Virus record (IMG/VR): IMGVR_UViG_3300031565_000002
Length of the DNA stretch: 64,000 bases
Origin: an uncultured virus (IMG/VR IMGVR_UViG_3300031565_000002)
Lineage: Duplodnaviria > Heunggongvirae > Uroviricota > Caudoviricetes
Reading direction: 5' to 3' (one strand)
The notes beneath the pieces were generated by a model that was given only the letters and a program-made list of their open reading frames with translations, was not told the origin of the DNA and ran no database searches. Position 1 is the first letter of the stretch, and each line of letters starts with the position of its first letter. Both the position numbers and the translations under genes were made by a program. Of this stretch, positions 11,585 to 63,391 are shown piece by piece.

Positions 11585-12205
11585 TTACTTTAATACATCG
11601 TATAATAATTCAGACTGTATAACCTTATTATTCTGTACTTTCTTCCTTATCACTACCCAACCATTATCCTGTGCAAATTTATCTTTTTCAGCATCCTTCA
11701 ATAATTGCTTACCGTTATGATATACTCCATCAAATTCAACAAATATCATTCTTTTAGATAATGCTAAATCAAAAATATAATTACCAAGAATAAACTCAAA
11801 CTCAAAATTTTCATTATTAAATTCTAAAAAATCTATTAACTTTTTATACTTCCACATTTCACGTAATAGCAAAGTCTCTTGAGCGGAAATAAGGTTTTTA
11901 CTTTCCAATCCAGATTTCCTTTGTGCATTACGTCTTTTATCAGTAACACTACCTGAAGATGCACAAGACCTTGAACAAAAGTCAGGACTCTTGGCTCCTG
12001 TTAATGTATCAAATGAAGATTTACAATATAAACATATTTTTTTTATAGGGACTCTTTTATCTAATCTTTCAGCATTTCTTTTCTTTGCAGCACATGATAA
12101 CCCACAATAAAAAATAGTCCGGCCATTCTTAACTTGCCTATTATATTCTCCACTATAAATTAGAAAACTATTACCGCAATATCCACAGATTAAATAAATA
12201 TCCAT
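11585..12205 (-). CDS. Free-standing homing-endonuclease-like protein (CxxC repeats + DUF559/Vsr-like nuclease)
   Basis: CGYC/CGLSC/CLYC/CSRSC repeats, then IFDLAL..IFVEFDGVYH..KDAEKD..GWVVIR; ATG at 12205 avoids overlap with the tmRNA. Confidence 0.75.
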   Translation of the reverse strand: MDIYLICGYCGNSFLIYSGEYNRQVKNGRTIFYCGLSCAAKKRNAERLDKRVPIKKICLYCKSSFDTLTGAKSPDFCSRSCASSGSVTDKRRNAQRKSGLESKNLISAQETLLLREMWKYKKLIDFLEFNNENFEFEFILGNYIFDLALSKRMIFVEFDGVYHNGKQLLKDAEKDKFAQDNGWVVIRKKVQNNKVIQSELLYDVLK

Positions 12206-12233
12206 AAAAGACTTATACAAAAATAAACTTAAT

Positions 12234-12593
12234 TGGAAGTGAGGGGAGTCGAACCCCTGTGTCATTAGCACCGTTAACAAGTCGCTACATGTTTAGTCTA
12301 TCTTTTTATAAACTCTCATCTTCTAATGCGCCGACAAACAAGCTCAATAAAAGACCAGTGCCTTATCTTACTCACCGGCCAACACTTCCGGCAAGCCAGT
12401 ACTCAAATTTGGGTCGAATCACAGTGAGTACACCCGTAATCCAACCAGACCACTTTTTTCTAAGCAGCCATACCGTATACTAACTCGTAATCTTCGCCAG
12501 TTAGTTTTTGTATCGGATGATTAACGAGGCCAACCGACATCCTCGACATGCTACTTGAAAATTATACCAAAGATCGAAAACCAGTACACTCCC
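12234..12593 (-). ncRNA. ssrA: tmRNA; tag ORF 12498->12460 encodes (A)GEDYELVYGMAA*
   Basis: 5' GGGAGUG pairs with 3' CACUUCC-A with G3.U70; T-arm AGGGG-UUCGACU-CCCCU; about 360 nt; internal ORF ending AA-stop after UAACU. Confidence 0.93.
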
Positions 12594-12668: not shown

Positions 12669-13007
12669 TTATTTATTATGATACTTCTTCCTTATCGCTA
12701 ATACAGGATCTTCAACTACTTCAACCTTATCGCTTTCATCATCCATTAAACTAGCAAGATTACTAACCAACCCAGTAGAAAGGCTTTCGTTCCCCGTATC
12801 AGAAACTATTGAAAAAACATCATTCTCAAGATTAATAGTTATTTCCATAGTATAAATATCCTTCTTAACCGGCTCTGATTCATCTTTCCCTAAACCCATC
12901 TGTGATCTTAAAAACTCAAGTAACATTTCCTGTAAATACTCAGTCTTTACCTGACTCCAAACCTTAAAAGTATCTTCCTTGAGATTGTACTGAATTTTTA
13001 TTTTCAA
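12669..13007 (-). CDS. Hypothetical protein (last gene of the Ubl/TROVE operon)
   Basis: 112-aa ORF starting 2 nt after the E1 stop. Confidence 0.6.
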   Translation of the reverse strand: MKIKIQYNLKEDTFKVWSQVKTEYLQEMLLEFLRSQMGLGKDESEPVKKDIYTMEITINLENDVFSIVSDTGNESLSTGLVSNLASLMDDESDKVEVVEDPVLAIRKKYHNK

Positions 13008-13009
13008 TA

Positions 13010-13657
13010 TTACTCCAATTCTAAAATTTTAAAATCTCCCAAAGTTATAGAACGAGAAACCTTATTCCCACTCTCAACATATTGAATAATTGTTTCAATT
13101 CCTACAATGGCTGACATCATACAAATGTTCCTCGATAAAGGATACTCGCACACATCAGGGCCGTTATTACCTTTTGGAACAATATATCTCTCATTCCATA
13201 CAACTTCACCATAACCTTCAGCTAATCCAATATGCAAACAATCAATTTTTCTTTCTTTACAAAAATCAGTAACAATTCCACGGCTCTCGCTATTATCAAA
13301 AGAATCAATAACAATCAGATTTTCTAATTCGGGCCAATTAATTTTCTTTATATTCGATTCAGTTAATCTTTGATCAATAACATTTATCTTAATGCCCATA
13401 CTGGCAAAAGCAATATTTTTCATCACCTGAACCTTTTTCGATCCGACTTCTCTTTTACCCCATATCTGCATTCCTCTATTATGGTCTTCAATGCGGTCAT
13501 TGTCAACTACGGTAATATTCTCAAACCCCTGCCTTATCATATTGACAATCAAATTAGAGCCAATAGCCCCGCAGCCACATACCACTATAGTATAATCTTT
13601 CAGCTTCGAAACAATATCTTTACCACGATACGACATTTCATGCTCTAAATGATGCAT
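13010..13657 (-). CDS. ThiF/E1-like ubiquitin-activating adenylyltransferase
   Basis: GCGAIGS nucleotide-binding loop, DNDRIEDHN, DSFDN; candidate catalytic Cys in DVCEY. Confidence 0.9.
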   Translation of the reverse strand: MHHLEHEMSYRGKDIVSKLKDYTIVVCGCGAIGSNLIVNMIRQGFENITVVDNDRIEDHNRGMQIWGKREVGSKKVQVMKNIAFASMGIKINVIDQRLTESNIKKINWPELENLIVIDSFDNSESRGIVTDFCKERKIDCLHIGLAEGYGEVVWNERYIVPKGNNGPDVCEYPLSRNICMMSAIVGIETIIQYVESGNKVSRSITLGDFKILELE

Positions 13658-14021
13658 CCCATTTTCCTTTCTGCTCTATTGCAAAATAGAAATTACCTAT
13701 AAAAAAATCCTTAACAAATTTAATCTTCTTATCCTTAGTAAATAAGTAAGAATTCCTTACTGTTTTATTACTATTCCATATACCACAAATAAGATCTTTC
13801 CAATGACAACTAACCCATGCCCCCATTGTTCTCCTATCTCTGTCGCTATATTCAATCCCATCTCCTGGGTGATTATGGTAAAAACCCAGCAACCACCTTG
13901 AATTATATACTTTCTCCCAGTCAAAGACAACATTAGCAGTGCCACCATTAGAATGATACACTATCCTTCCTATGCGGAACCATAATATTTTTATGCCAAA
14001 TAAAAAGTAACAATTTTCCAA
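13638..14021 (-). CDS. JAB/MPN+ (JAMM) metallopeptidase
   Basis: GFYHNHPGDGIEYSDRD fits HxH-x7-S-x2-D to within one residue of spacing (x6). Confidence 0.82.
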   Translation of the reverse strand: MENCYFLFGIKILWFRIGRIVYHSNGGTANVVFDWEKVYNSRWLLGFYHNHPGDGIEYSDRDRRTMGAWVSCHWKDLICGIWNSNKTVRNSYLFTKDKKIKFVKDFFIGNFYFAIEQKGKWDASFRA

Positions 14022-14030
14022 AATATTCCT

Positions 14031-14519
14031 TTATTTAAATAAATGCTCCTGCCCTGGCAATGTATATACATATACCTTAACGCTCGGGCAAGATTCCTTG
14101 ATACACTCTTCAATAATATTCCACTTCCCCTTCGCAAGCCCAGAGCCTATTCTCGGCATATGAATGGTACAATTATTATTACTAGCCTGATAATGTACAG
14201 ACCCAAGGCATCTCTTTAATGAACCATACCTAATAGGTGGTACACCATCAACTACCTTAGTCCCTTGCTGTGCAATCATATTTGCAACTATGATTTGAGT
14301 ATTAACACTGACCAGTTGAATGTTACCCAATTTAGGCTTTAAACCAAATTCATTAGGAGATTCGAACCACTTCCGGTATCCTTCTTCCGCTAATGGGTAT
14401 TTTTTGCTTAATGCCAAAACAAAACCTCTGCCCCACCCACCTATATCATTACAAACATGAGCAATAATAGCAGGCTTGACAATCGGTTCAGTTGCATCTC
14501 CGGTAATATATTCTATCAT
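14031..14519 (-). CDS. Macrodomain protein (ADP-ribose processing, TARG1/DarG-like)
   Basis: IEYITGDAT, AHVCNDIGGWGRGF, MPRIGSGLAKGKW. Confidence 0.88.
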   Translation of the reverse strand: MIEYITGDATEPIVKPAIIAHVCNDIGGWGRGFVLALSKKYPLAEEGYRKWFESPNEFGLKPKLGNIQLVSVNTQIIVANMIAQQGTKVVDGVPPIRYGSLKRCLGSVHYQASNNNCTIHMPRIGSGLAKGKWNIIEECIKESCPSVKVYVYTLPGQEHLFK

Positions 14520-14521
14520 AA

Positions 14522-15370
14522 TTAATTCCTTGTCCTTATTATTAAACTCCTGTTCTGCCCTTCTCTCATAACACCAACTAAACTTTTCAAATCAAAATCA
14601 CTATCATGACCATTCAAGCAAATACCGGCAGAAATAATATTATGGGCAGAATCCTTACTTACAAATGAAGTGTATTCATTTCCATCAACCATATAAGTAA
14701 TAGAATAACTGTCCTTACGCTCTCTATATGAAACTAATTCACCGCCAGCATGAGAAACAGCATCTTTAAGTCCATCTTTAGCCGTCTTCTTATGTAATTC
14801 TTTATCCATTCCAAATTTAATTGCATAAGCTGCCTTTTCCTCAAACATGAGTCCTGAAAACTTTAGTTTATCTGGCTTTAGTGCTTTAGAATAATTTTCT
14901 CTTAAATATTCACCTTTCATTAAATCATTATTCTGGTCTGCTATTTCAAACCATATATTACAACCATCGAATCTACAAATAACAATTTCGAAATCAAGGG
15001 TATTATCATCTGTCAAATATATTGGTAACAATGATTCAGAACTAATCCCCAATTTATTCCCCTTCTGAGGAATACCATAATAAACACCATTATTCTTATA
15101 AGAAGTGACCAATCTTATTGATGGTAATTTTTTCAAATATGCATCAACATCACTAAAATCTGCTTCACTCTCAACTTTCGCATTCTCAAAATTAGTAGGC
15201 TTAAACATATACCACCCAGGATCAATAGCCTTGATCTTCAAGGTATGAACTACACCCTGGATTCTCATTGCAACAATCCTATTGCCAAAAACAGGAGAGA
15301 TAAATTCCATTTCTGTAATTTTACTCTCCTGTTCAGCAAACTTATCCAAAATTTTAAGTGGATCAACCAT
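14522..15370 (-). CDS. Operon protein with a putative divergent E2-like C-terminal domain
   Basis: AHNIISAGICLNG resembles the E2 HPN..G.ICL active site; lies among Ubl/E1/JAB genes. Confidence 0.45.
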   Translation of the reverse strand: MVDPLKILDKFAEQESKITEMEFISPVFGNRIVAMRIQGVVHTLKIKAIDPGWYMFKPTNFENAKVESEADFSDVDAYLKKLPSIRLVTSYKNNGVYYGIPQKGNKLGISSESLLPIYLTDDNTLDFEIVICRFDGCNIWFEIADQNNDLMKGEYLRENYSKALKPDKLKFSGLMFEEKAAYAIKFGMDKELHKKTAKDGLKDAVSHAGGELVSYRERKDSYSITYMVDGNEYTSFVSKDSAHNIISAGICLNGHDSDFDLKSLVGVMREGQNRSLIIRTRN

Positions 15371-15374
15371 GCTT

Positions 15375-17006
15375 TTAAGCTACTTTCTTTTTTCTACCTT
15401 TCCTTAGCTTCCGAAAAATCTCATCGAAAGGTTTGCGGACAGGTAACGGATAATCCTGAATCTCATAAAGCAATTCTAACTTTGATTTCTGAGATAACAA
15501 TGGGATTAATCCCGGTAAAGCATAATATCCTTTATCGTCATCTGAAATATCAAACTGGGTATAATCTCCCACAGCATTTGTTAGCCCAGCCCTAAAATTT
15601 CTGATCCAAGAAGGCTCATTACCATAACGTGAATCAGCATCAACTCTGATAACAACAACATTAGGATCAACATTCATAGCATTTTTATAAGATGTAATAG
15701 CATCGCCTATAAATGGTGCACGGTTTTCTCCTTCATCCGTAATCAAAACTATCTGCTCGACATAATACTTCATTCTCTGGAGAAACGCTACACCGACACC
15801 AACAGATGTCGCTCCACCAGCATTGACACCTCTAAATGCATCCTCCCACGAAGTCATTGTATGACTTTTAGACTTTATTTCACGTGCCATAGTATCAGCG
15901 GTCAAAACGTAAAGTTTATCATTAGTAGCACCAGAAATCATAGATGCTACTATCTTACCAACCTCAATAGCAATGTCCATACTCGCTGAAACATCAACTA
16001 TTACAGCAGTTGGTAAATTGATAGTTCTTTTCCTCTTGATACTTTCATCGGCAACCTTATCTAACTGATCTGCAATTTCAGAATCTTCAACGCCGGATGA
16101 TGTCTTGGCAACTTTTGCCTTTAATCCAGATACATGCTTCGCACTCTCTGCCTTTTTCAACTTCTCCATAACAAGTTTTTTAAGGTCAGGATTGTTATAC
16201 GCACCACGATCCCTCAATGATCCAATGTTATTAATTACCTGTTGAGGAGTCATCTGACTAATCAAAGCAGTAAGAATACTCGGAGTCATTTTCTTAATAA
16301 GACCAACAGCAGTAATATAAGGAACGTTATTCTTTATAATAAGTTCTGCCTTTTTAGCCGGACTTCTGGCTTCCATGATCTGCTTCAATATAATAAGCTT
16401 ACTATCTTCAGGGATATTTCTATCAAAAAGAATAGCCTTTGCCCTGTCAGATGGCTTCATCTGAATCGACGCATATAACCCGATTATTGGATTAAAGTTA
16501 GAAAGCACTACATCATCAAACCTATCATTATCACTCTCAAGCCACTTTAGATAATTGGCTATTTCAACCTTTAATGAACGGGTAAGATATCTTTTAAGCC
16601 CTACATATTTCTTCTCTGTAATAGGCTTATCAATAGTTTTTCCACCCTTAATCTTAATCTTCTTAGTTTTGTCCCTGGTCGTTATTTTAACCGGCTTTCC
16701 TCTAATAAGACCTTTTACTCTTTCCTTCATAAAAGGTGGAAGAAGCCTGAAAAGAGCCAGCCCTGTCTCTCTATTATCAATAAATGGATCAACACATAAC
16801 AAACCGGTAAAAACCTCATTATGATCCCTGATTTCACCAAATTCCCCATGCCAAGCTGCTAGCCGTGCATAAAAAAGTGGATCTGATTTCTGAACTGCCC
16901 TATGCACCTCGATAATCTTATCAAGGTCGCGATGAGGGCATTGTAAAATTGAGTTCAATAAAGAGACTCGCTCATCCGACTCAGGTCTGGATGTATCTCT
17001 AGTCAT
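15375..17006 (-). CDS. TROVE/Ro60-like helical domain + vWA domain protein
   Basis: N-terminal DPLFYARLAAW..IRD as in TROVE proteins; C-terminal MIDAS DVSASM, GGATS, LITDEGEN. Confidence 0.78.
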   Translation of the reverse strand: MTRDTSRPESDERVSLLNSILQCPHRDLDKIIEVHRAVQKSDPLFYARLAAWHGEFGEIRDHNEVFTGLLCVDPFIDNRETGLALFRLLPPFMKERVKGLIRGKPVKITTRDKTKKIKIKGGKTIDKPITEKKYVGLKRYLTRSLKVEIANYLKWLESDNDRFDDVVLSNFNPIIGLYASIQMKPSDRAKAILFDRNIPEDSKLIILKQIMEARSPAKKAELIIKNNVPYITAVGLIKKMTPSILTALISQMTPQQVINNIGSLRDRGAYNNPDLKKLVMEKLKKAESAKHVSGLKAKVAKTSSGVEDSEIADQLDKVADESIKRKRTINLPTAVIVDVSASMDIAIEVGKIVASMISGATNDKLYVLTADTMAREIKSKSHTMTSWEDAFRGVNAGGATSVGVGVAFLQRMKYYVEQIVLITDEGENRAPFIGDAITSYKNAMNVDPNVVVIRVDADSRYGNEPSWIRNFRAGLTNAVGDYTQFDISDDDKGYYALPGLIPLLSQKSKLELLYEIQDYPLPVRKPFDEIFRKLRKGRKKKVA

Positions 17007-17044
17007 ACAACCCTCCTTGTAAAATGATAAAACTTAATTATTTA

Positions 17045-17302
17045 TTATTTTCCGAATTCAGCGTCAGGTCGGACCGTTGCATTACCATTAGCATGTCGCT
17101 CAATAGTATAGTCTGAGAACTCCGATAATGCTACATCGAGGTGATCTGATACCGCTGTTTTAATTTGAGTATCAGATAAATCTTGTACATTATCGGCTGC
17201 ACCTTCAGCAACACCAAGGGCTTGCAATCTTCCCTGTGGGAAAAGTGTAGTAAGGTCAAAGTCCTGAGACTGATTTCTGAATTTAACATGAACTGTAGCC
17301 AT
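17045..17302 (-). CDS. Ubiquitin-like (beta-grasp) small protein
   Basis: 85 aa, N-terminal beta strands, C-terminal TVRPDAEFG-K; GGAGG RBS; first gene of an E1/JAB operon. Confidence 0.65.
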   Translation of the reverse strand: MATVHVKFRNQSQDFDLTTLFPQGRLQALGVAEGAADNVQDLSDTQIKTAVSDHLDVALSEFSDYTIERHANGNATVRPDAEFGK

Positions 17303-17336
17303 AATGTACCTCCAAATGCGATAAATCTATAAAAAA

Positions 17337-17475
17337 GGGTTAGCGTCCGTTTTGAAAATGCAAGTTTTGGTTTGCGTAATAGGAATTGAACCTACGACAA
17401 TTTGATTAGTAATCAAATGCTCTACCAACTGAGCTATATGCAATGTATGCATTAAAGGTCGAAGACGCTTAACCC
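17337..17475 (-). ncRNA. Y-RNA-like ncRNA: terminal stem enclosing a complete 76-nt tRNA-like module (17368..17443, anticodon ACU)
   Basis: GGGUUA-A-GCGUC pairs with GACGC-UAACCC; inner AAUGCA/UGCAUU stem; cloverleaf ending ACCA; followed by U6. Confidence 0.72.
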
Positions 17476-17502: not shown

Positions 17503-17531
17503 AATATAACCACAAAAGTAAAAAAAGTCAA
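17503..17531 (-). promoter_or_regulatory. sigma70-type promoter for the ncRNA/Ubl operon
   Basis: TTGACT-17 nt-TATATT. Confidence 0.7.
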
Positions 17532-43791: not shown

Positions 43792-45062
43792 CCGTTCCTA
43801 AAAATGTAGTAAAATCTACCATATTGACACCATCAACATTAACGCTTCCGCAAGCGGAAGTCTTACTTAACTCCAATGTCCGTTTAGGTGGGCTGAAACG
43901 TTTCCACACCATAATTCAAAATATTTATAGCCGCATTACGGTCCCTGTCAATCATAAGACCACAATCGCATACGTAAATCCTATCAGACAATTTCAAGTT
44001 ATCCTTGATAGCCCCGCAAGCAGAACACATCTTAGATGATGGGAAAAAACGATTAACAATAAGAACTACGTTATCACGTAATTTCGCCTTATATTCAAGA
44101 AATCGCCTGAACATACCAAGTCCTGCATCAGATATAGCCCGTGCCAACTTATGATTTTTAACCATACCGTTAACATTTAAATCCTCAATACAGATAGTAT
44201 GATATTTAGATGTTAACATATCAGTTAACTCATGCAAAACCGCCTTGCGTTGTTTTGATATCAAAAAATGAAGTTTAGCAACCTGAAACTTGGCTTTTGC
44301 TTTCCGATTACTGCCATTCTGTTTTCGACTCAATTTACGTTGCAGTTTTTTAAGTTTAACAAGACTATCCTTAAGCTTCTGATTAGCCGGAATAACTACC
44401 CCATCACTTAATGTAGCAAGATTTTTAATCCCTAAATCTACACCGATAGAACCTACTCCAGCAACTTTATTATAATCAATAGTTTCAACAAGAATACTTA
44501 CGAAATATTTACCAGCACGTTTACTAATGGTAATCTGTTTAGGGACTCCATTAAAACATAATTGTTGCCGAAGTTTAATTAATGTTTTTAATTTTTCAAT
44601 CCTAATCCATCGACCACGGATATCAAACTTAGGCTGCTCTCTCAAAGAAAAAGAATCATTAATATTTTTCTTCTTAAATTTCGGAAATCCAGGCTTCTTA
44701 CCGCTCTTAACTCTACGGAAAAAATGTTTAAATGCATTATCAAGATCATCTATAGCATTGCGAGTTACACGTTGACTAATTTCTGAATACCAAATAAATT
44801 CTGATCGTAACGATTTATAAAAATTTAAAGCAATTTTTTTATTCCATTTAACTGTTTTATCAGAAAAATGATTCAATAACTGATTATAACAATGCCTGCG
44901 TGAACCGCAGGCTTTATCTAAATAGATAGCCTGATCTTTTGTAGGATATAATTCTATCTTATGTGCAAGTAACATTTTTCTAAAAATTCCTATCATTAAA
45001 CGTAGTAAAATATGCTATATTTTACTACGTTTTACTATATCATCGCTTACTGTTAACAACCC
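43792..45062 (-). mobile_element. Non-autonomous IS607-like element carrying tnpB only
   Basis: GG at both junctions; TAGTAAAA/TTTTACTAC subterminal repeats at both ends; right end ...TTTTTAGGAACGG; no tnpA. Confidence 0.7.
43884..44975 (-). CDS. tnpB: TnpB RNA-guided endonuclease
   Basis: AHKIELYPT HTH, RuvC GVDLG / IEDL / DRDRNAAINI, CSACG..CDCG. Confidence 0.95.
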   Translation of the reverse strand: MLLAHKIELYPTKDQAIYLDKACGSRRHCYNQLLNHFSDKTVKWNKKIALNFYKSLRSEFIWYSEISQRVTRNAIDDLDNAFKHFFRRVKSGKKPGFPKFKKKNINDSFSLREQPKFDIRGRWIRIEKLKTLIKLRQQLCFNGVPKQITISKRAGKYFVSILVETIDYNKVAGVGSIGVDLGIKNLATLSDGVVIPANQKLKDSLVKLKKLQRKLSRKQNGSNRKAKAKFQVAKLHFLISKQRKAVLHELTDMLTSKYHTICIEDLNVNGMVKNHKLARAISDAGLGMFRRFLEYKAKLRDNVVLIVNRFFPSSKMCSACGAIKDNLKLSDRIYVCDCGLMIDRDRNAAINILNYGVETFQPT

Positions 45063-53554: not shown

Positions 53555-53944
53555 ATGTACATATCCATTCAGTACCCAAATAAAATTTTTGCCGACCTTG
53601 CTGCCATATTTGATAACTTCTCGGCCGTATCAGATAACTATGACTTCAATCAGCCCAATGTTCCTGCAAAAGTAGTAAAAAATGAAAATAATGTAACAAT
53701 TCTAATTAAAGCTCCAGGATTCAAAAAAGATGATATATCAATATCCATACAAAACGGGGCTGTAATTATCAAAGGAAAACGTGACAGCAAAGAAAAATGG
53801 CTTGAAGAAGAATTTGAAAAATCCTTTAAACTTCCGGAGAAAATAAAAGAAAATAAAATATCGGCTAAACTTGAAAATGGTATCCTGACAGTTACCCTAC
53901 CATACGCCGAAGAGTCAAAGCCTATAGCAGTCGAAATTAAGTAA
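53555..53944 (+). CDS. Small heat-shock protein Hsp20
   Basis: APGFKKDDISI, FEKSFKLP, ISAKLENGILTVTLP; AGGAG RBS before ATG 53555. Confidence 0.92.
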   Translation: MYISIQYPNKIFADLAAIFDNFSAVSDNYDFNQPNVPAKVVKNENNVTILIKAPGFKKDDISISIQNGAVIIKGKRDSKEKWLEEEFEKSFKLPEKIKENKISAKLENGILTVTLPYAEESKPIAVEIK

Positions 53945-54584
53945 GACTATTCTTTCTTAATCCATTAACATCTATCTTACGTCGAGCCCAATGTTTATCG
54001 TTGGGCTTTACGTGTTCTGCCCTTACATATTTTGCGCAAGATGTAGTAAAATCATCGTAATGAAATCTCTCCTCGAGTCTCACAACATAACCTTCACAAG
54101 GGTCACCATCAATGTTATCTTTAAAAAAATTATGAACAGTAGAACTATTCCATATACCATCATAAATAACTGGGACTGTTTTCATTCCTAAATAATCGGC
54201 CCACGATTCAGTCGCAGCCCAATCTAAACAAACATTGTCCTCATCCCAAACTGAAAAAAGTAAAAAATAACTTTCCAGATTATGATAGTGGATACTATGC
54301 ACAGCATACATATTCTCACCACATAATCGCCACCCCACAGGTATTTTCCGTTTTATCTGTGCATGGAAATTCTTAACCCAATTTCTCGAAGGGTGATTGT
54401 TACTATCAAGTGATCGAGCGTGAGTATGGTCAGTATACATACTCGTATTTTCACCATCCATCTTAACAGTAACTATAACTCTTTTATTCCAAAAATGATT
54501 GTCACTCCTTAATACCTTATCATCATCCGTAAAACCTTGAGACCAAGGCAAGTGATACATTCTCGGATGCTTAATGTACTCCAT
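53937..54584 (-). CDS. ATP-dependent RNA ligase family protein
   Basis: KHPRMYHLPWS, motif I KMDGEN, GENMYA, EGYVVR, AKYVR. Confidence 0.85.
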   Translation of the reverse strand: MEYIKHPRMYHLPWSQGFTDDDKVLRSDNHFWNKRVIVTVKMDGENTSMYTDHTHARSLDSNNHPSRNWVKNFHAQIKRKIPVGWRLCGENMYAVHSIHYHNLESYFLLFSVWDEDNVCLDWAATESWADYLGMKTVPVIYDGIWNSSTVHNFFKDNIDGDPCEGYVVRLEERFHYDDFTTSCAKYVRAEHVKPNDKHWARRKIDVNGLRKNSLT

Positions 54585-54605
54585 GATAACAACCTTTAAT
54601 TTAAG

Positions 54606-55576: not shown

Positions 55577-55652
55577 TGGAGCCTACGGTGGGACTCAAAC
55601 CCACGACCTTCGGATTACAAAGCCGATGCTCTATCAACTGAGCTACGCAGGC
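55577..55652 (-). tRNA. tRNA-Thr(TGT), slightly non-canonical
   Basis: Cloverleaf with CCA; loop TTTGTAA; T-loop TTTGAGT, D-loop GA instead of GG, C.U at 31-39. Confidence 0.8.
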
Positions 55653-55710
55653 TTAAATGGTGACCAGAGGGGGACTTGAACCCCCACGCCTATAAATGGC
55701 AACGGATTTT

Positions 55711-56470
55711 CCTACCACACTTACTTTCATAAGCCAGCAATATTATACTGTTGTAGCCTGGACTATATCATCACCTTCGACTTAACGTTAAGGTGTGGAG
55801 TGCATAGTCTCTGAACCTTCTTCTTGGGATATATCCTTTAGAAACTCGGCTGCTGATTGCCCAATTTCCCATAATTTTATAACTTTCACACTCGCCGTTT
55901 CCAGCCATGTTGTAGTTATGGGAACTATAAGGGTATCCCAGCAATTCTCTCCATTCACAATACTTGATTTCTCAAGTATGGCTCTCTGTTCCCTGATAAA
56001 ATGATGCAATCTAACATGGTTAGTTCTAGAAATAACTACTAAATTAGTTAATTTATTATTCTTTGGATTATCATCTAAATGGTGAACAACTTCATTAGTA
56101 TTTAATTTCCTTTGCAATACTTCTTCGGCTATTCTCCTATGTAACCAACAATATCCTCCACCATGAGCAGGTTCATAAGGATTCAAAAATTTACCAGAAC
56201 TATGAATATTTCTATAACATTCTAAACAATATTTCTGTTCCGGTCTATTTAACCTTATCTTCTTTTTACATAATCCACAAAAACCATACCCATAACGTTT
56301 TTTATTCTTATTTCCTCCTTTCTTATAATATTGTGCCATTCTTCTTTCTAGATAACAACCATGACAGTATCGCCTACCACTTTCACAAGGATTTTTCCTA
56401 CACTTGATGCACATTTTTATCATAATAACAATATAACCAAAACATACATGCAGTATCAAGAAAAACTTGA
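55711..56470 (-). ncRNA. Group I intron in the tRNA-Leu anticodon
   Basis: P AAUUGCUGGGA, Q AAUCAGCAG, R GUUCAGAGACUA, S GAUAUAGUCC; exon ends in U and intron in G; GAGCC guide then P2 hairpin. Confidence 0.92.
55788..56423 (-). CDS. Intron-encoded HNH homing endonuclease
   Basis: LHRRIAE..EVVHHLDDNPKNNKLTNL..H..H; CxxC fingers; C-terminus runs through the intron core. Confidence 0.88.
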   Translation of the reverse strand: MIKMCIKCRKNPCESGRRYCHGCYLERRMAQYYKKGGNKNKKRYGYGFCGLCKKKIRLNRPEQKYCLECYRNIHSSGKFLNPYEPAHGGGYCWLHRRIAEEVLQRKLNTNEVVHHLDDNPKNNKLTNLVVISRTNHVRLHHFIREQRAILEKSSIVNGENCWDTLIVPITTTWLETASVKVIKLWEIGQSAAEFLKDISQEEGSETMHSTP

Positions 56471-56514: not shown

Positions 56515-56588
56515 AGCCCACAACGGGGATCGAACCCATGAACCTCATCCTTACCAAGGATGCGCTCTACCTACTGAGCTATGTGGGC
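56515..56588 (-). tRNA. tRNA-Thr(GGT)
   Basis: Cloverleaf; CATCC-TTGGTAA-GGATG. Confidence 0.92.
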
Positions 56589-57091
56589 GCATTAAACATA
56601 CTGTTATTTCTGTCTATCTTATCTCTCTGCTCTCTTAACAATCTCAAAACATACCCATTCGCATTAACCTGAGGATTTGTCCTTACAAATGTATAATAAT
56701 TCAAACCTAAATAATCATTAGCAAACTCACCAACAGCACCAGATCGACTTATACCTGCATCGCAATGTACCAAAAGAACATCATCTTCATTGCCCCTATT
56801 CGCACAATCTATAAATTTAACTACCTGCTCTGCCTGTATCTTGCTAAACATCCCTTTTGTATCATCTGCCGAAAAACCATAATCACTATCAGTAGAATCG
56901 TAAAAATTTAAAGATAAAAAATCCTTACAGCCTAATTCCTTTACCCTATTCGGTATCCCATTCTTTAAAAACTCCCCTCTACCATTGTCGGCATAAATAG
57001 AAATAAGATACCATGAATTATACGGAATATAATCATGAGCAACCATATTGGCTATTGCCATTCTATTAATAACTTTTATAAAATTTATCAC
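56579..57091 (-). CDS. Protein tyrosine/dual-specificity phosphatase-like protein
   Basis: VHCDAGISRSGA CX5R motif. Confidence 0.85.
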   Translation of the reverse strand: MINFIKVINRMAIANMVAHDYIPYNSWYLISIYADNGRGEFLKNGIPNRVKELGCKDFLSLNFYDSTDSDYGFSADDTKGMFSKIQAEQVVKFIDCANRGNEDDVLLVHCDAGISRSGAVGEFANDYLGLNYYTFVRTNPQVNANGYVLRLLREQRDKIDRNNSMFNAPT

Positions 57092-62601: not shown

Positions 62602-63168
62602 ATGAAAAAATATAAATTAAAATGTATTCATTGTAAAAAAATATTTATTGTACATAAACTAAGAGATTATCATAAAAGAAAGTTCTGTGGAAACTCATGT
62701 TCAGCATCTTATAACAATCCTCGGAAACATCGAAAAGCAAAAAAAAGACCATGTTCAGTATGTGGGACTATGTTTATACCACCCAAAAATTATCTCCAAA
62801 GAATGCGCTGCGATAAATGCTTCAAAGAAAATAAATTTACAAGAACATCAATAAAACCAAGATATAAAAATTATATAGCTCCTGATATATCAGAAATGAC
62901 AAAGGGCAAATTGTTTAAATCAAGAAAATCTTGGCAATCAGCAAGAAGTGCAATAACTATACATGCCATCGTAACATATCATACGAGCAATCAACCTAAA
63001 AAATGTATTATATGCAACTATTCCAAACACATTCATATATGCCACAAAAAACCAGTTTCAAAATTCTCGAATAAAGTATTAATAAAAACCATTAATTCAA
63101 CAAAAAACTTAATTGCATTATACCCTAATCATCATTGGGAGTTTGACCAAAAACTTCTCCAATTATAA
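62602..63168 (+). CDS. HNH endonuclease-like protein with zinc fingers, possibly degenerate
   Basis: CIHC/CGNSC/CSVC, CIICN..HICHKK..NLIALYPNHHWEFD (Tyr where CPNHH is usual). Confidence 0.7.
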   Translation: MKKYKLKCIHCKKIFIVHKLRDYHKRKFCGNSCSASYNNPRKHRKAKKRPCSVCGTMFIPPKNYLQRMRCDKCFKENKFTRTSIKPRYKNYIAPDISEMTKGKLFKSRKSWQSARSAITIHAIVTYHTSNQPKKCIICNYSKHIHICHKKPVSKFSNKVLIKTINSTKNLIALYPNHHWEFDQKLLQL

Positions 63169-63169
63169 A

Positions 63170-63253
63170 TAGCCGGTAGCAGACTCGAACTGCTACGGGA
63201 TTTCTCCCACTGATTCCTGAAACCAGCGTGTCTACCAATTCCACCAACCGGCC
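63170..63253 (-). tRNA. tRNA-Leu(CAG)
   Basis: Class II cloverleaf; CTGGT-TTCAGGA-ATCAG. Confidence 0.9.
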
Positions 63254-63260
63254 TTAAAAG

Positions 63261-63391
63261 GAGAAGGTCGCTCACAGTAATAACCAGCCGCTTCTGGGTG
63301 GACTTGCTCACCCTTTTACTCTCTGCTGTACCTAAACAAGTCCCCGGCACCAGAGTTCATGAGCTACATTGCAACTGACAGTCACCTTCTT
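63261..63391 (-). ncRNA. Unassigned structured RNA with a kissing-loop pseudoknot
   Basis: GAGAAGGU/ACCUUCUC closing stem; two hairpins with complementary loops GACUUGUU and AGCAAGUC. Confidence 0.6.

Follow-up and report, generated by a model that had tools for sequence, protein, structure and literature searches.

The window analysed here, a stretch of 64,000 nucleotides (nt) from the uncultured virus IMGVR_UViG_3300031565_000002 (Caudoviricetes), carries on its minus strand at 17475-17331 an RNA element in which a complete transfer RNA (tRNA) cloverleaf is enclosed by an inner stem of 6 base pairs (bp) and a bulged outer stem of 11 bp. The element belongs to a real and strongly supported RNA family that was previously undescribed; its structure is conserved and covarying, it is linked to a gene for a Ro60-like protein, and its tRNA-shaped head has the features of a non-decoder. 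The explanation that fits best, to which we give a probability of roughly 0.6, is that these are modular small RNAs of huge phages, Y-RNA-type partners of a phage Ro60, with a head that has the shape of a tRNA and is not a decoding tRNA. Literature searches found no published description of a tRNA-in-stem design, the supplementary phage YrlA tables of Chen et al. 2014, which may hold a related case, lying outside their scope.

A complete tRNA inside a conserved terminal stem

The head is called by ARAGORN as tRNA-Ser(act) and reaches 67.5 bits with the Rfam tRNA model (RF00005; gathering score, 29), which ranks it third among the window's 15 tRNA matches. An earlier note, made from the letters of the window alone, had read the 76-nt cloverleaf, the AAUGCA/UGCAUU stem, the bulged outer stem and the six U residues that follow it, and the sequence, ARAGORN and Rfam agree with every detail. 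The conflict that it saw between anticodon and body is likewise present: ACU (17410-17408) stands on a body with a variable loop of 5 nt, A73 (17371) and an encoded CCA (17370-17368), and in the AU-rich acceptor stem A5 (17439) lies opposite C68 (17376). The 151-nt stretch folds at -41.3 kcal/mol, compared with -24.4 +/- 3.35 for 200 shuffles (z -5.04), and the z-score of the flank-to-flank duplex is -3.4 for the element, compared with a range of -2.3 to +1.8 for the 15 cluster tRNAs of the window, which lack the enclosing-stem design. The nearest of these starts at 54605, about 37 kb away as the earlier note had it, and the 64 kb hold exactly one copy of the element, 329 nt before the start codon of the Ro-like gene and on the same strand.

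Relatives were gathered from IMG/VR with an alignment of the Ro-like protein as query, which yielded 24 loci (a single-protein query of viral contigs yielded none). ARAGORN calls tRNAs in 21 of the 24, many with odd anticodons (aat, att, tat, tca), and places Leu or Ser anticodons on calls of 72-77 nt. One design recurs: an outer stem, a pyrimidine-rich loop ending in AC, an inner stem ending in GC, UUACA, an AU-rich acceptor stem with the remaining parts of the cloverleaf, N73, frequently CCA, a run of A, the inner stem again, RACUY and the outer stem. Many copies end in a T run, and in the printed flanks the copies inside arrays lack one. The parts that surround the tRNA form a handle, consisting of the outer stem, an asymmetric internal loop conserved in sequence (5' YYNAC / 3' RACUY), an inner stem closed by a G-C pair and the UUACA linker.

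A covariance model of the tRNA-bearing element (R1; 25 seed copies) detects the element in 22 of the 24 sources, with 40 full-length copies that score 71 bits or more, the 25 seeds among them, and matches the ordinary tRNAs of these sources in their core only, at no more than 57 bits. Thirty-eight of the 40 share the strand of the Ro-like gene and are placed upstream of it. An independent metagenome scan gave 39 loci, one of them the window's own contig; in the 27 that were searched with R1 there are 23 further matches of at least 70 bits, distributed over 13 loci and all on the Ro strand. The window copy was also recovered with a model (R3) built from 28 elements of other metagenome loci, the copy itself excluded, at 98.0 bits over its full length; ordinary tRNAs come next in the 64 kb, with 58.2 and 55.9 bits. 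Across five phage genomes (2.53 Mb), eight matches reach 90 bits or more, every one of them at the Ro locus; an ordinary tRNA follows at 67 bits, and the matches of 56-67 bits elsewhere are GC-rich tRNAs with poorly paired flanks. A GC-rich tRNA-Thr(cgu) far from the Ro locus (L028; G001 181965-182150) scores 60 bits on R1 and is flanked by GUCGCCCAC ... AUGGAC, with a short outer stem and no inner stem; its flanks may be a diverged handle or chance. An exact-pattern scan of IMG/VR returned six loci and adds no independent information because three are contigs already in the set, with the Ro-like gene, and three are chance matches with no model match, no tRNA and no Ro-like gene.

The stems are supported by double-sided changes throughout. 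A plain MAFFT alignment of 25 copies, read against a hand-written structure, pairs in 82.2% of cells versus 58.8% for shuffles and 34-46% for slid partners, with double-sided changes at all 11 outer-stem pairs. Fitted to R1, the 40 copies pair in 90.0% of cells and show such changes at 38 of 40 pairs, and the 23 matches of the independent set pair in 92.4%, with changes at 36 of 40. For the outer helix the values are 92.6% (R1-fitted, changes at 11/11) and 94.1% (independent set), so that the check named beforehand in the earlier note, a covariation model from homologous loci, finds this stem conserved. The inner helix is paired in 83-87% of cells across the alignments (84.4% R1-fitted), and 6-8 of its 8 pairs show double-sided changes. 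Four tandem copies occur in the closest relative (L056; Ro-like protein 56% identical); they have four different anticodons, 6-nt T loops in three cases and AAAAC before GGAC in the 3' loop, the AAAAC variant being common to these four and the window copy.

Within the head, the shape of the anticodon loop is kept and the triplet is not. The loop has 7 nt in 37 of 40 copies, with U33 in 31 of these 37 and a purine at position 37 in every one, and A38 is kept alongside them. Twenty-two different anticodons occur among the 40 copies; the three anticodon columns have the highest entropy of the whole RNA (1.66-1.86 bits), and the most conserved segments, at 0.34 and 0.43 bits, are the linker UUACA and the loop RACUY. 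Twelve pairs of copies are at least 80% identical in the tRNA body, and none of the 12 has an anticodon in common. Because the triplet is the most variable part and near-identical bodies do not share it, selection appears to keep the shape of the loop and not its reading. Bacterial tRNA-Leu and tRNA-Ser belong to class II, with a long variable arm, and ARAGORN gives 83-91 nt for the window's own Leu and Ser tRNAs. The variable loop of the family is 4-5 nt in all copies, including the 13 of 37 with Leu or Ser anticodons, and the ACU of the window copy thus sits on a body type that does not fit it. A34 occurs in 7 of 37 copies, the acceptor stem is 27% GC with 6-7 pairs in 26 of 40 copies, NCCA is encoded in 16 of 40, and some copies have a 6-nt T loop or no acceptor stem. 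The tRNA head does not look like a decoder, its anticodon being free to vary, and some 'tRNA genes' with odd anticodons annotated in huge phages are probably not decoders.

The same handle also occurs without a tRNA. Elements of 77-90 nt in the same arrays have the same stems and loops and the same UUACAAAC...GUUUAAAA junction around a small loop in place of a tRNA. A handle-only model built from eight of these tRNA-less minis (R2) gives 49 matches, all on the Ro strand, and scores minis at 66-90 bits and tRNA-bearing copies at 36-53 bits, with the tRNA treated as an insertion; it also matches elements of 90-165 nt that have other heads. Minis of 77-86 nt that consist of the handle and an acceptor-stem stump (AAAC...GUUU) are interleaved with tRNA-bearing copies (Table 1). 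A handle scan by regular expression and complementarity was too loose (964 matches on the Ro strand versus 740 on the other), and R2 was used instead. By analogy, one handle with many heads resembles the layout of Y RNAs, and the tRNA-less minis may be analogues of YrlB. The family is modular, the same handle occurring with and without a tRNA, and its clear evolutionary signal is a conserved anticodon-loop shape with a free triplet.

Table 1. Positions of the RNA element, its neighbouring genes and the tRNA-less minis of related loci
Feature	Position	Strand	Evidence or remark
Sigma-70-like promoter candidate TTGACT / 17-nt spacer / TATATT	17503..17531	-	10/12 consensus matches
Outer stem 5' arm GGGUUA-A-GCGUC, one bulged A	17464..17475	-	sequence read, folding
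Internal loop 5' side UUCGACCUUU, 10 nt	17454..17463	-	contains conserved 'AC' of family motif YYNAC
Inner stem 5' arm AAUGCA	17448..17453	-	
Single-stranded linker UACA	17444..17447	-	family's near-invariant (U)UACA; column entropy
tRNA-shaped head, 76-nt class-I cloverleaf	17368..17443	-	ARAGORN, Rfam tRNA
A-rich linker after CCA, AAACU	17363..17367	-	'NCCA-AAAA' recurs across family
Inner stem 3' arm UGCAUU	17357..17362	-	
Internal loop 3' side UUCAAAACG, 9 nt	17348..17356	-	AAAAC in place of family RACUY
Outer stem 3' arm GACGC-UAACCC	17337..17347	-	
U6 run immediately 3' of outer stem	17331..17336	-	probable 3' end or terminator tail
Ubiquitin-like protein candidate, 85 residues	17045..17302	-	first open reading frame of operon, ribosome-binding site GGAGG; tblastn 17/25 loci
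Divergent Ro60 orthologue, 543 residues (P0001)	15375..17006	-	helical-repeat ring + vWA domain; fold and profile matches
Partner gene, 282 residues, OB-fold-like barrel	14522..15370	-	present in 21/25 loci, model pLDDT 86
Minis, L001	2604-2682, 3204-3285		
Minis, L025	193-275, 2030-2113, 2352-2437		
Minis, L022	2808-2887, 3124-3207, 3213-3293		
Minis, L053	725-810, 888-966, 2319-2395		

A divergent Ro60-like protein and its gene neighbours

The Ro-like protein has at least 260 homologues, mostly from long metagenomic contigs. A Pfam scan of the 543-residue protein gave no match at E 0.01, PHROG returned a weak match only ('RNA-binding protein'), and Pfam TROVE was found in 0 of 32 members of the protein family at E <= 0.01; among the same 32, vWA_Ro60 (PF25045) is found in 6 and VWA_2 in 15. 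The MIDAS motif DxSxS (metal-ion-dependent adhesion site) of the vWA domain reads VDVSAS, with D338, S340 and S342 invariant in 32 sequences. A profile search of the PDB with 32 homologues gave four matches at E <= 10, all of them Ro60/TROVE/Rsr. The AlphaFold model (predicted local distance difference test, pLDDT, 85.8) finds full-length Ro60/Rsr/TROVE structures in each of its top 12 Foldseek matches (E 1.9e-11 to 4.4e-9), and VIA-align superposes it on all 10 Ro60/Rsr/TROVE entries with Z 17.2-19.9 and a root-mean-square deviation of 4.2-4.8 over 415-448 residues, whereas vWA-only structures rank below the Ro60 entries (Z <= 15.1). The phage protein phiRo60 (PDB 9KOP and 9L5Y) is among the fold matches, at Z 17.2-19.5. 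Because the fold matches full-length Ro60 while Pfam TROVE misses the family, the protein is a very divergent Ro60 orthologue, recognisable by its fold. The earlier note had placed the RNA at the head of a TROVE operon, a claim that holds by fold and not by Pfam TROVE. The assignment extends Ro60 to a large clade of huge-phage proteins outside the reach of the Pfam TROVE profile.

The first ribosome-binding site of the operon lies 29 nt beyond the U6 run. It precedes the 85-residue protein, which has a conserved C-terminus (...NGNITVRPxAxFG) that ends at the Gly in 7 of 15 homologues and at ...FGK in the window copy, and for which the structural leads are Prok_Ub and Ufm1 at TM about 0.5. The 282-residue protein gave weak OB/S1/CSD-type matches only (E 5e-4; Z up to 6.1), and no family was assigned to it. 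Within the 3.5-kb locus flanks examined for neighbour genes, the 25 loci hold the 85-residue protein in 17, the Ro-like protein in 25, the 282-residue protein in 21, a JAB-like protein in 10 and a ThiF/E1-like protein in 8, the last of which matches ThiF, MoeB, TcdA and SAMP-E1 models. In the window, the minus-strand set at 12669-17302 further includes a JAB/JAMM protein of 127 residues (HNHPx7SDRD; motif HxHx7Sx2D), a ThiF/E1-like protein of 215 residues, a protein of 162 residues (phrog_335, 'phosphatase', with a weak DarG/macro resemblance) and one of 112 residues of no recognised kind. The Ro60-like clade of huge phages is thereby linked to a ubiquitin-like, E1 and JAB gene set, and we know of no description of a Ro60 gene paired with such genes.

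Outside the studied family, too, a phage Ro gene is found next to a tRNA array. In Listeria phage P100, a phrog_850 Ro-like gene (121588-123090) lies directly downstream of 17 ordinary tRNAs (L079, 123000-130000; L078), and R1 finds ordinary tRNAs only in P100, at no more than 48.7 bits and with poor flanks, so that P100 lacks the family described here. For a phage related to P100, three highly transcribed regions are described upstream of a Ro-like gene of the phrog_850 type (PMC12282133).

Relation to known Y RNAs and rival explanations

Known Y RNAs are described as lying near the Ro60 gene on its strand and as carrying tRNA-like modules (Chen 2014, PMC4201824). YrlA (RF02553), reported from S. 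Typhimurium, M. smegmatis and 22 phages, has a permuted module of T arm, closed acceptor hairpin and D arm, with neither an anticodon loop nor a free CCA in the published descriptions (Chen et al. 2014, PMC4201824; Wang et al. 2018, 10.1101/312249), and the Rfam consensus agrees on the order and on both absences. Relative to these accounts, the family shares with YrlA its position within a few kb of the Ro60 gene on the same strand, often in tandem, as well as a terminal stem of the 5' and 3' ends that closes the RNA and a tRNA-like module with canonical D and T arms. The terminal stem of YrlA, however, continues the anticodon stem, whereas the handle of the family hangs off the acceptor end, and the family has the order acceptor-D-anticodon-V-T-acceptor, a 7-nt anticodon loop, an open acceptor and NCCA in the linker, on each of which points YrlA is the reverse. 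The earlier note had contrasted a permuted YrlA without an exposed anticodon loop with a Y-RNA-like architecture that keeps one; the former agrees with these sources as far as they describe YrlA, and the latter with more than 60 covarying copies beside Ro-like genes.

The nearest precedent in topology, which the earlier note did not mention and which is a partial one, is Yrn1 of Deinococcus radiodurans, described as having an 'anticodon loop' of 6 nt and only part of a D arm and as lacking a variable arm (PMC4201824). Like the family, Yrn1 as described is non-permuted, with a stem-loop at the position of the anticodon arm and a Ro-binding stem made from the RNA ends. It is reduced, and that description mentions no separate acceptor stem or CCA, whereas the head of the family has every part of a tRNA and scores as a bona fide one. 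Ro60 genes with upstream Y-like RNAs are also reported from mycobacteriophages and Thermus phage phiLo (PMC4201824; PMC12135203). The phiLo RNAs Yrl1 and Yrl2, two RNAs just upstream of phiRo60, have, as described, a stem-bulge-stem form that contains a CGAA motif and lacks a tRNA module, and RNA binding to phiRo60 and to host PNPase, which is recruited, is shown there (PMC12135203). The arrangement of a phage-encoded Ro60 with a Y-like RNA upstream is alike in the two cases; binding was shown in phiLo and is proposed for the family.

Metazoan Y RNAs (RF00019) likewise pair their two ends into a terminal stem that contains a conserved interruption and is followed by a U run, and combine a constant handle with variable loops; they differ in the sequence of the handle loop and in having no tRNA module. 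Their CUUGAC-like 3' strand may compare with ACUUGGAC here. Transfer-messenger RNA (tmRNA) and viral tRNA-like structures such as that of turnip yellow mosaic virus are, in the account of Wang 2018 (10.1101/312249), tRNA mimics that keep a CCA end and an equivalent of the anticodon domain. They are aminoacylated and act in translation or replication, whereas the family gives no sign of charging and has its CCA inside the primary transcript. The family is a variant of the Y RNA and Ro60 theme with a complete tRNA as its head, and as such is unlike any described Y RNA.

As a Y-RNA-type partner of the divergent Ro60 (TROVE and vWA), an RNA of about 140 nt would be encoded by single genes or arrays of 2-4 upstream of the protein. 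The handle, formed by the 5' and 3' ends, would dock on the Ro60 ring, and the head, as a bait or tether, would offer some nuclease or tRNA-binding enzyme a mimic of a tRNA; its purpose might be that of a tether, of a gate or of a bait directed at host anticodon nucleases, or it might connect to the ubiquitin-like/E1 set. Because the Ro-contact motifs of known Y RNAs are not conserved here, we infer Ro binding from synteny, architecture and analogy, and the stable 140-nt species and the role of the head are likewise proposed. The function of the tRNA-like domain in bacterial Y RNAs is a long-standing question, for which the family offers a natural variant whose mimic is a whole tRNA with anticodon loop and CCA. 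A more far-reaching version, which we consider rather doubtful, would have huge phages keep a small set of whole tRNA mimics whose anticodons run free and which one shared handle ties to the phage Ro60 ring, as baits or sensors for host defences that cleave or modify tRNAs, with bait hits captured, reported or repaired at the Ro particle. Were it true, it would be an RNA-based counter-defence in which anticodon diversification is the trace of an arms race and the Ro particle is encoded with an OB-fold protein and a ubiquitin-like conjugation set. The earlier note's interpretation, a distinct Y RNA architecture that might act as a nuclease decoy or sensor, is partly supported.

Several results weigh against a Y-RNA-type partner of Ro60. 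The window element scores 16.4 bits with Rfam YrlA (cut-off 69; E 0.81), a scan that the earlier note had proposed, and gives no match to Rfam Y_RNA (RF00019) at E <= 10. The family does not conserve GGUCCGA or GNCGAAN0-1G, the motifs with which known Y RNAs bind Ro; by eye, which is not a formal motif search, no recurrent CGAA was seen in the 5' loops of the 40 copies, the window having only UCGAC. A vertebrate-style bulged helix across the handle loop (a pyrimidine bulge, then 2 bp) fits just 11 of 40 copies and was rejected, and R2 gives no match to the diverged window copy at E <= 1e-3. One copy lies on the opposite strand (L007) and one downstream of the Ro-like gene and operon (L021); R1 finds no strong copy in L011 and L019, which belong to the 24 sources, and no match of 70 bits or more at any of the 9 loci with distant Ro-like genes (26-29% identity). 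The linkage counts are also partly circular because the loci were gathered via the Ro-like gene, and only the window and the five whole genomes escape this. Finally, the unconstrained minimum free energy fold of the window copy retains the three tRNA arms (D, anticodon and T) together with the outer stem, but forms two local hairpins in place of the acceptor and inner stems, the nested cloverleaf evaluating at -30.8 to -35.4 kcal/mol. Because the thermodynamic optimum makes this trade, the nested form rests on comparative evidence. In the alternative pairing (17437-17453, 17357-17376), each arm of the inner stem can pair with the acceptor strand on its own side, the 5' arm AAUGCA with the 5' strand and the 3' arm with the 3' strand, which the nearest-neighbour model rates about 6-10 kcal/mol better; the same alternative was not seen in the relatives.

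The rival that survives best, though we judge it unlikely, accepts a real and non-decoding RNA family and assigns it another partner, a different operon product or a host factor in place of the Ro-like ring. The RNA could then be a substrate or regulator of the ubiquitin-like/E1/JAB module or a free-standing decoy for host anticodon nucleases, and the ubiquitin-, JAB- or E1-like or OB-fold proteins could be its true partner, a further point against Ro60. E1-like enzymes act in tRNA thiolation and t6A cyclisation, and the E1-like protein has the ThiF, MoeB, TcdA and SAMP-E1 matches; the ubiquitin-like gene stands between RNA and Ro-like gene in 17 of the 25 loci, the OB-fold gene comes next in most of them with JAB and E1 genes in some, and a kept loop shape with a varying triplet is what a bait of loop-directed enzymes would have. 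Strong copies nevertheless lie beside the Ro-like gene in seven loci without a detectable ubiquitin-like gene (L013, L014, L017, L020, L022, L023, L025), the E1 and JAB genes are found in a minority of flanks, though these span just 3.5 kb, and the described Ro60 systems all pair the protein with a neighbouring stem-closed RNA in the accounts cited here (PMC4201824; PMC12135203).

That the element is a working tRNA gene, whose flanking stems are a precursor removed by RNase P and 3' nucleases (or RNase III) to give a charged 76-nt tRNA used in translation, is quite improbable. The high score with the Rfam tRNA model, the intact elbow (D-loop GG, UUCAAUU T loop), U33, A37 and the encoded CCA would suit it, as would copies within ordinary tRNA arrays in several relatives, and there is a precedent for such processing in M. 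smegmatis YrlA, which is described as being cut by RNase P and receiving CCA (Chen 2014, PMC4201824). Against this stand the anticodons, which differ in every near-identical pair and include Leu and Ser triplets on short variable loops, the window's own Leu and Ser tRNAs being long; moreover, ordinary tRNAs of the same genomes lack the handle, which also caps tRNA-less heads, and conservation in the loop and linker motifs exceeds that in most of the tRNA body.

The promoter candidate would place the transcript start about 20 nt before the outer stem, but it is not significant alone because a scan of the region gave 3 sites versus 4.9 expected. A consensus scan for intrinsic terminators (a short GC-rich hairpin and a U run), with its loop limit of 3-8 nt, made no call on the minus strand, and it missed the U6 site because of this limit, the stem arms being about 120 nt apart. 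A chiefly cis-acting terminator or attenuator between this promoter-like site and the operon, in which the tRNA shape senses, for instance, a tRNA-binding factor and sets read-through to the ubiquitin-like and Ro genes, would suit the U6 run directly after the outer stem and the ribosome-binding site shortly beyond, and is very improbable in view of the 2-4 tandem copies and minis of relatives, many without a T run, the one copy that lies downstream of the operon and the one on the opposite strand, and the conserved loop sequences and modular heads, which fit a trans-acting ribonucleoprotein better.

Other features of the window

The window is AT-rich (about 33% GC), with every gene on the minus strand, and its sole relative among deposited phages is an uncultured phage of 595 kb. 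It holds a replication module of the huge-phage type (Pol III alpha, DnaB-primase, clamp, clamp loader and RecA), a tmRNA, the 15 clustered tRNAs, a group I intron and an RNA ligase. The ligase gene (PF09414, E 1e-31; 53937-54584) directly adjoins the tRNA cluster, within which lies a DSPc-like phosphatase gene (56579-57091), and the two may form a tRNA repair set. A 7-bp complementary pair (CUUCUCC upstream, GGAGAAG downstream; region 63132-63270) brackets tRNA-Leu(cag) at 63170-63253, whose flank duplex is the strongest among the cluster tRNAs (z -2.3) and has no handle motifs.

The group I intron (55737-56010, 64 bits; region 55655-56100, minus strand) has an HNH open reading frame at 55788-56459 and is followed, just upstream of tRNA-Thr at 55577-55652, by a T-arm-like stretch, GGGGGUUCAAGUCCCCC, with which it may represent an intron-split tRNA that has no ARAGORN call. 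The tmRNA gene at 12231-12593 encodes the tag GEDYELVYGMAA, and its 3' end is overlapped by an open reading frame at 11585-12280 with HNH-like and DUF559 matches. A gene of the TnpB/IS605 OrfB type, with OrfB_IS605 and Cas12f1-like TNB domains, lies within the replication module at 43884-44996.

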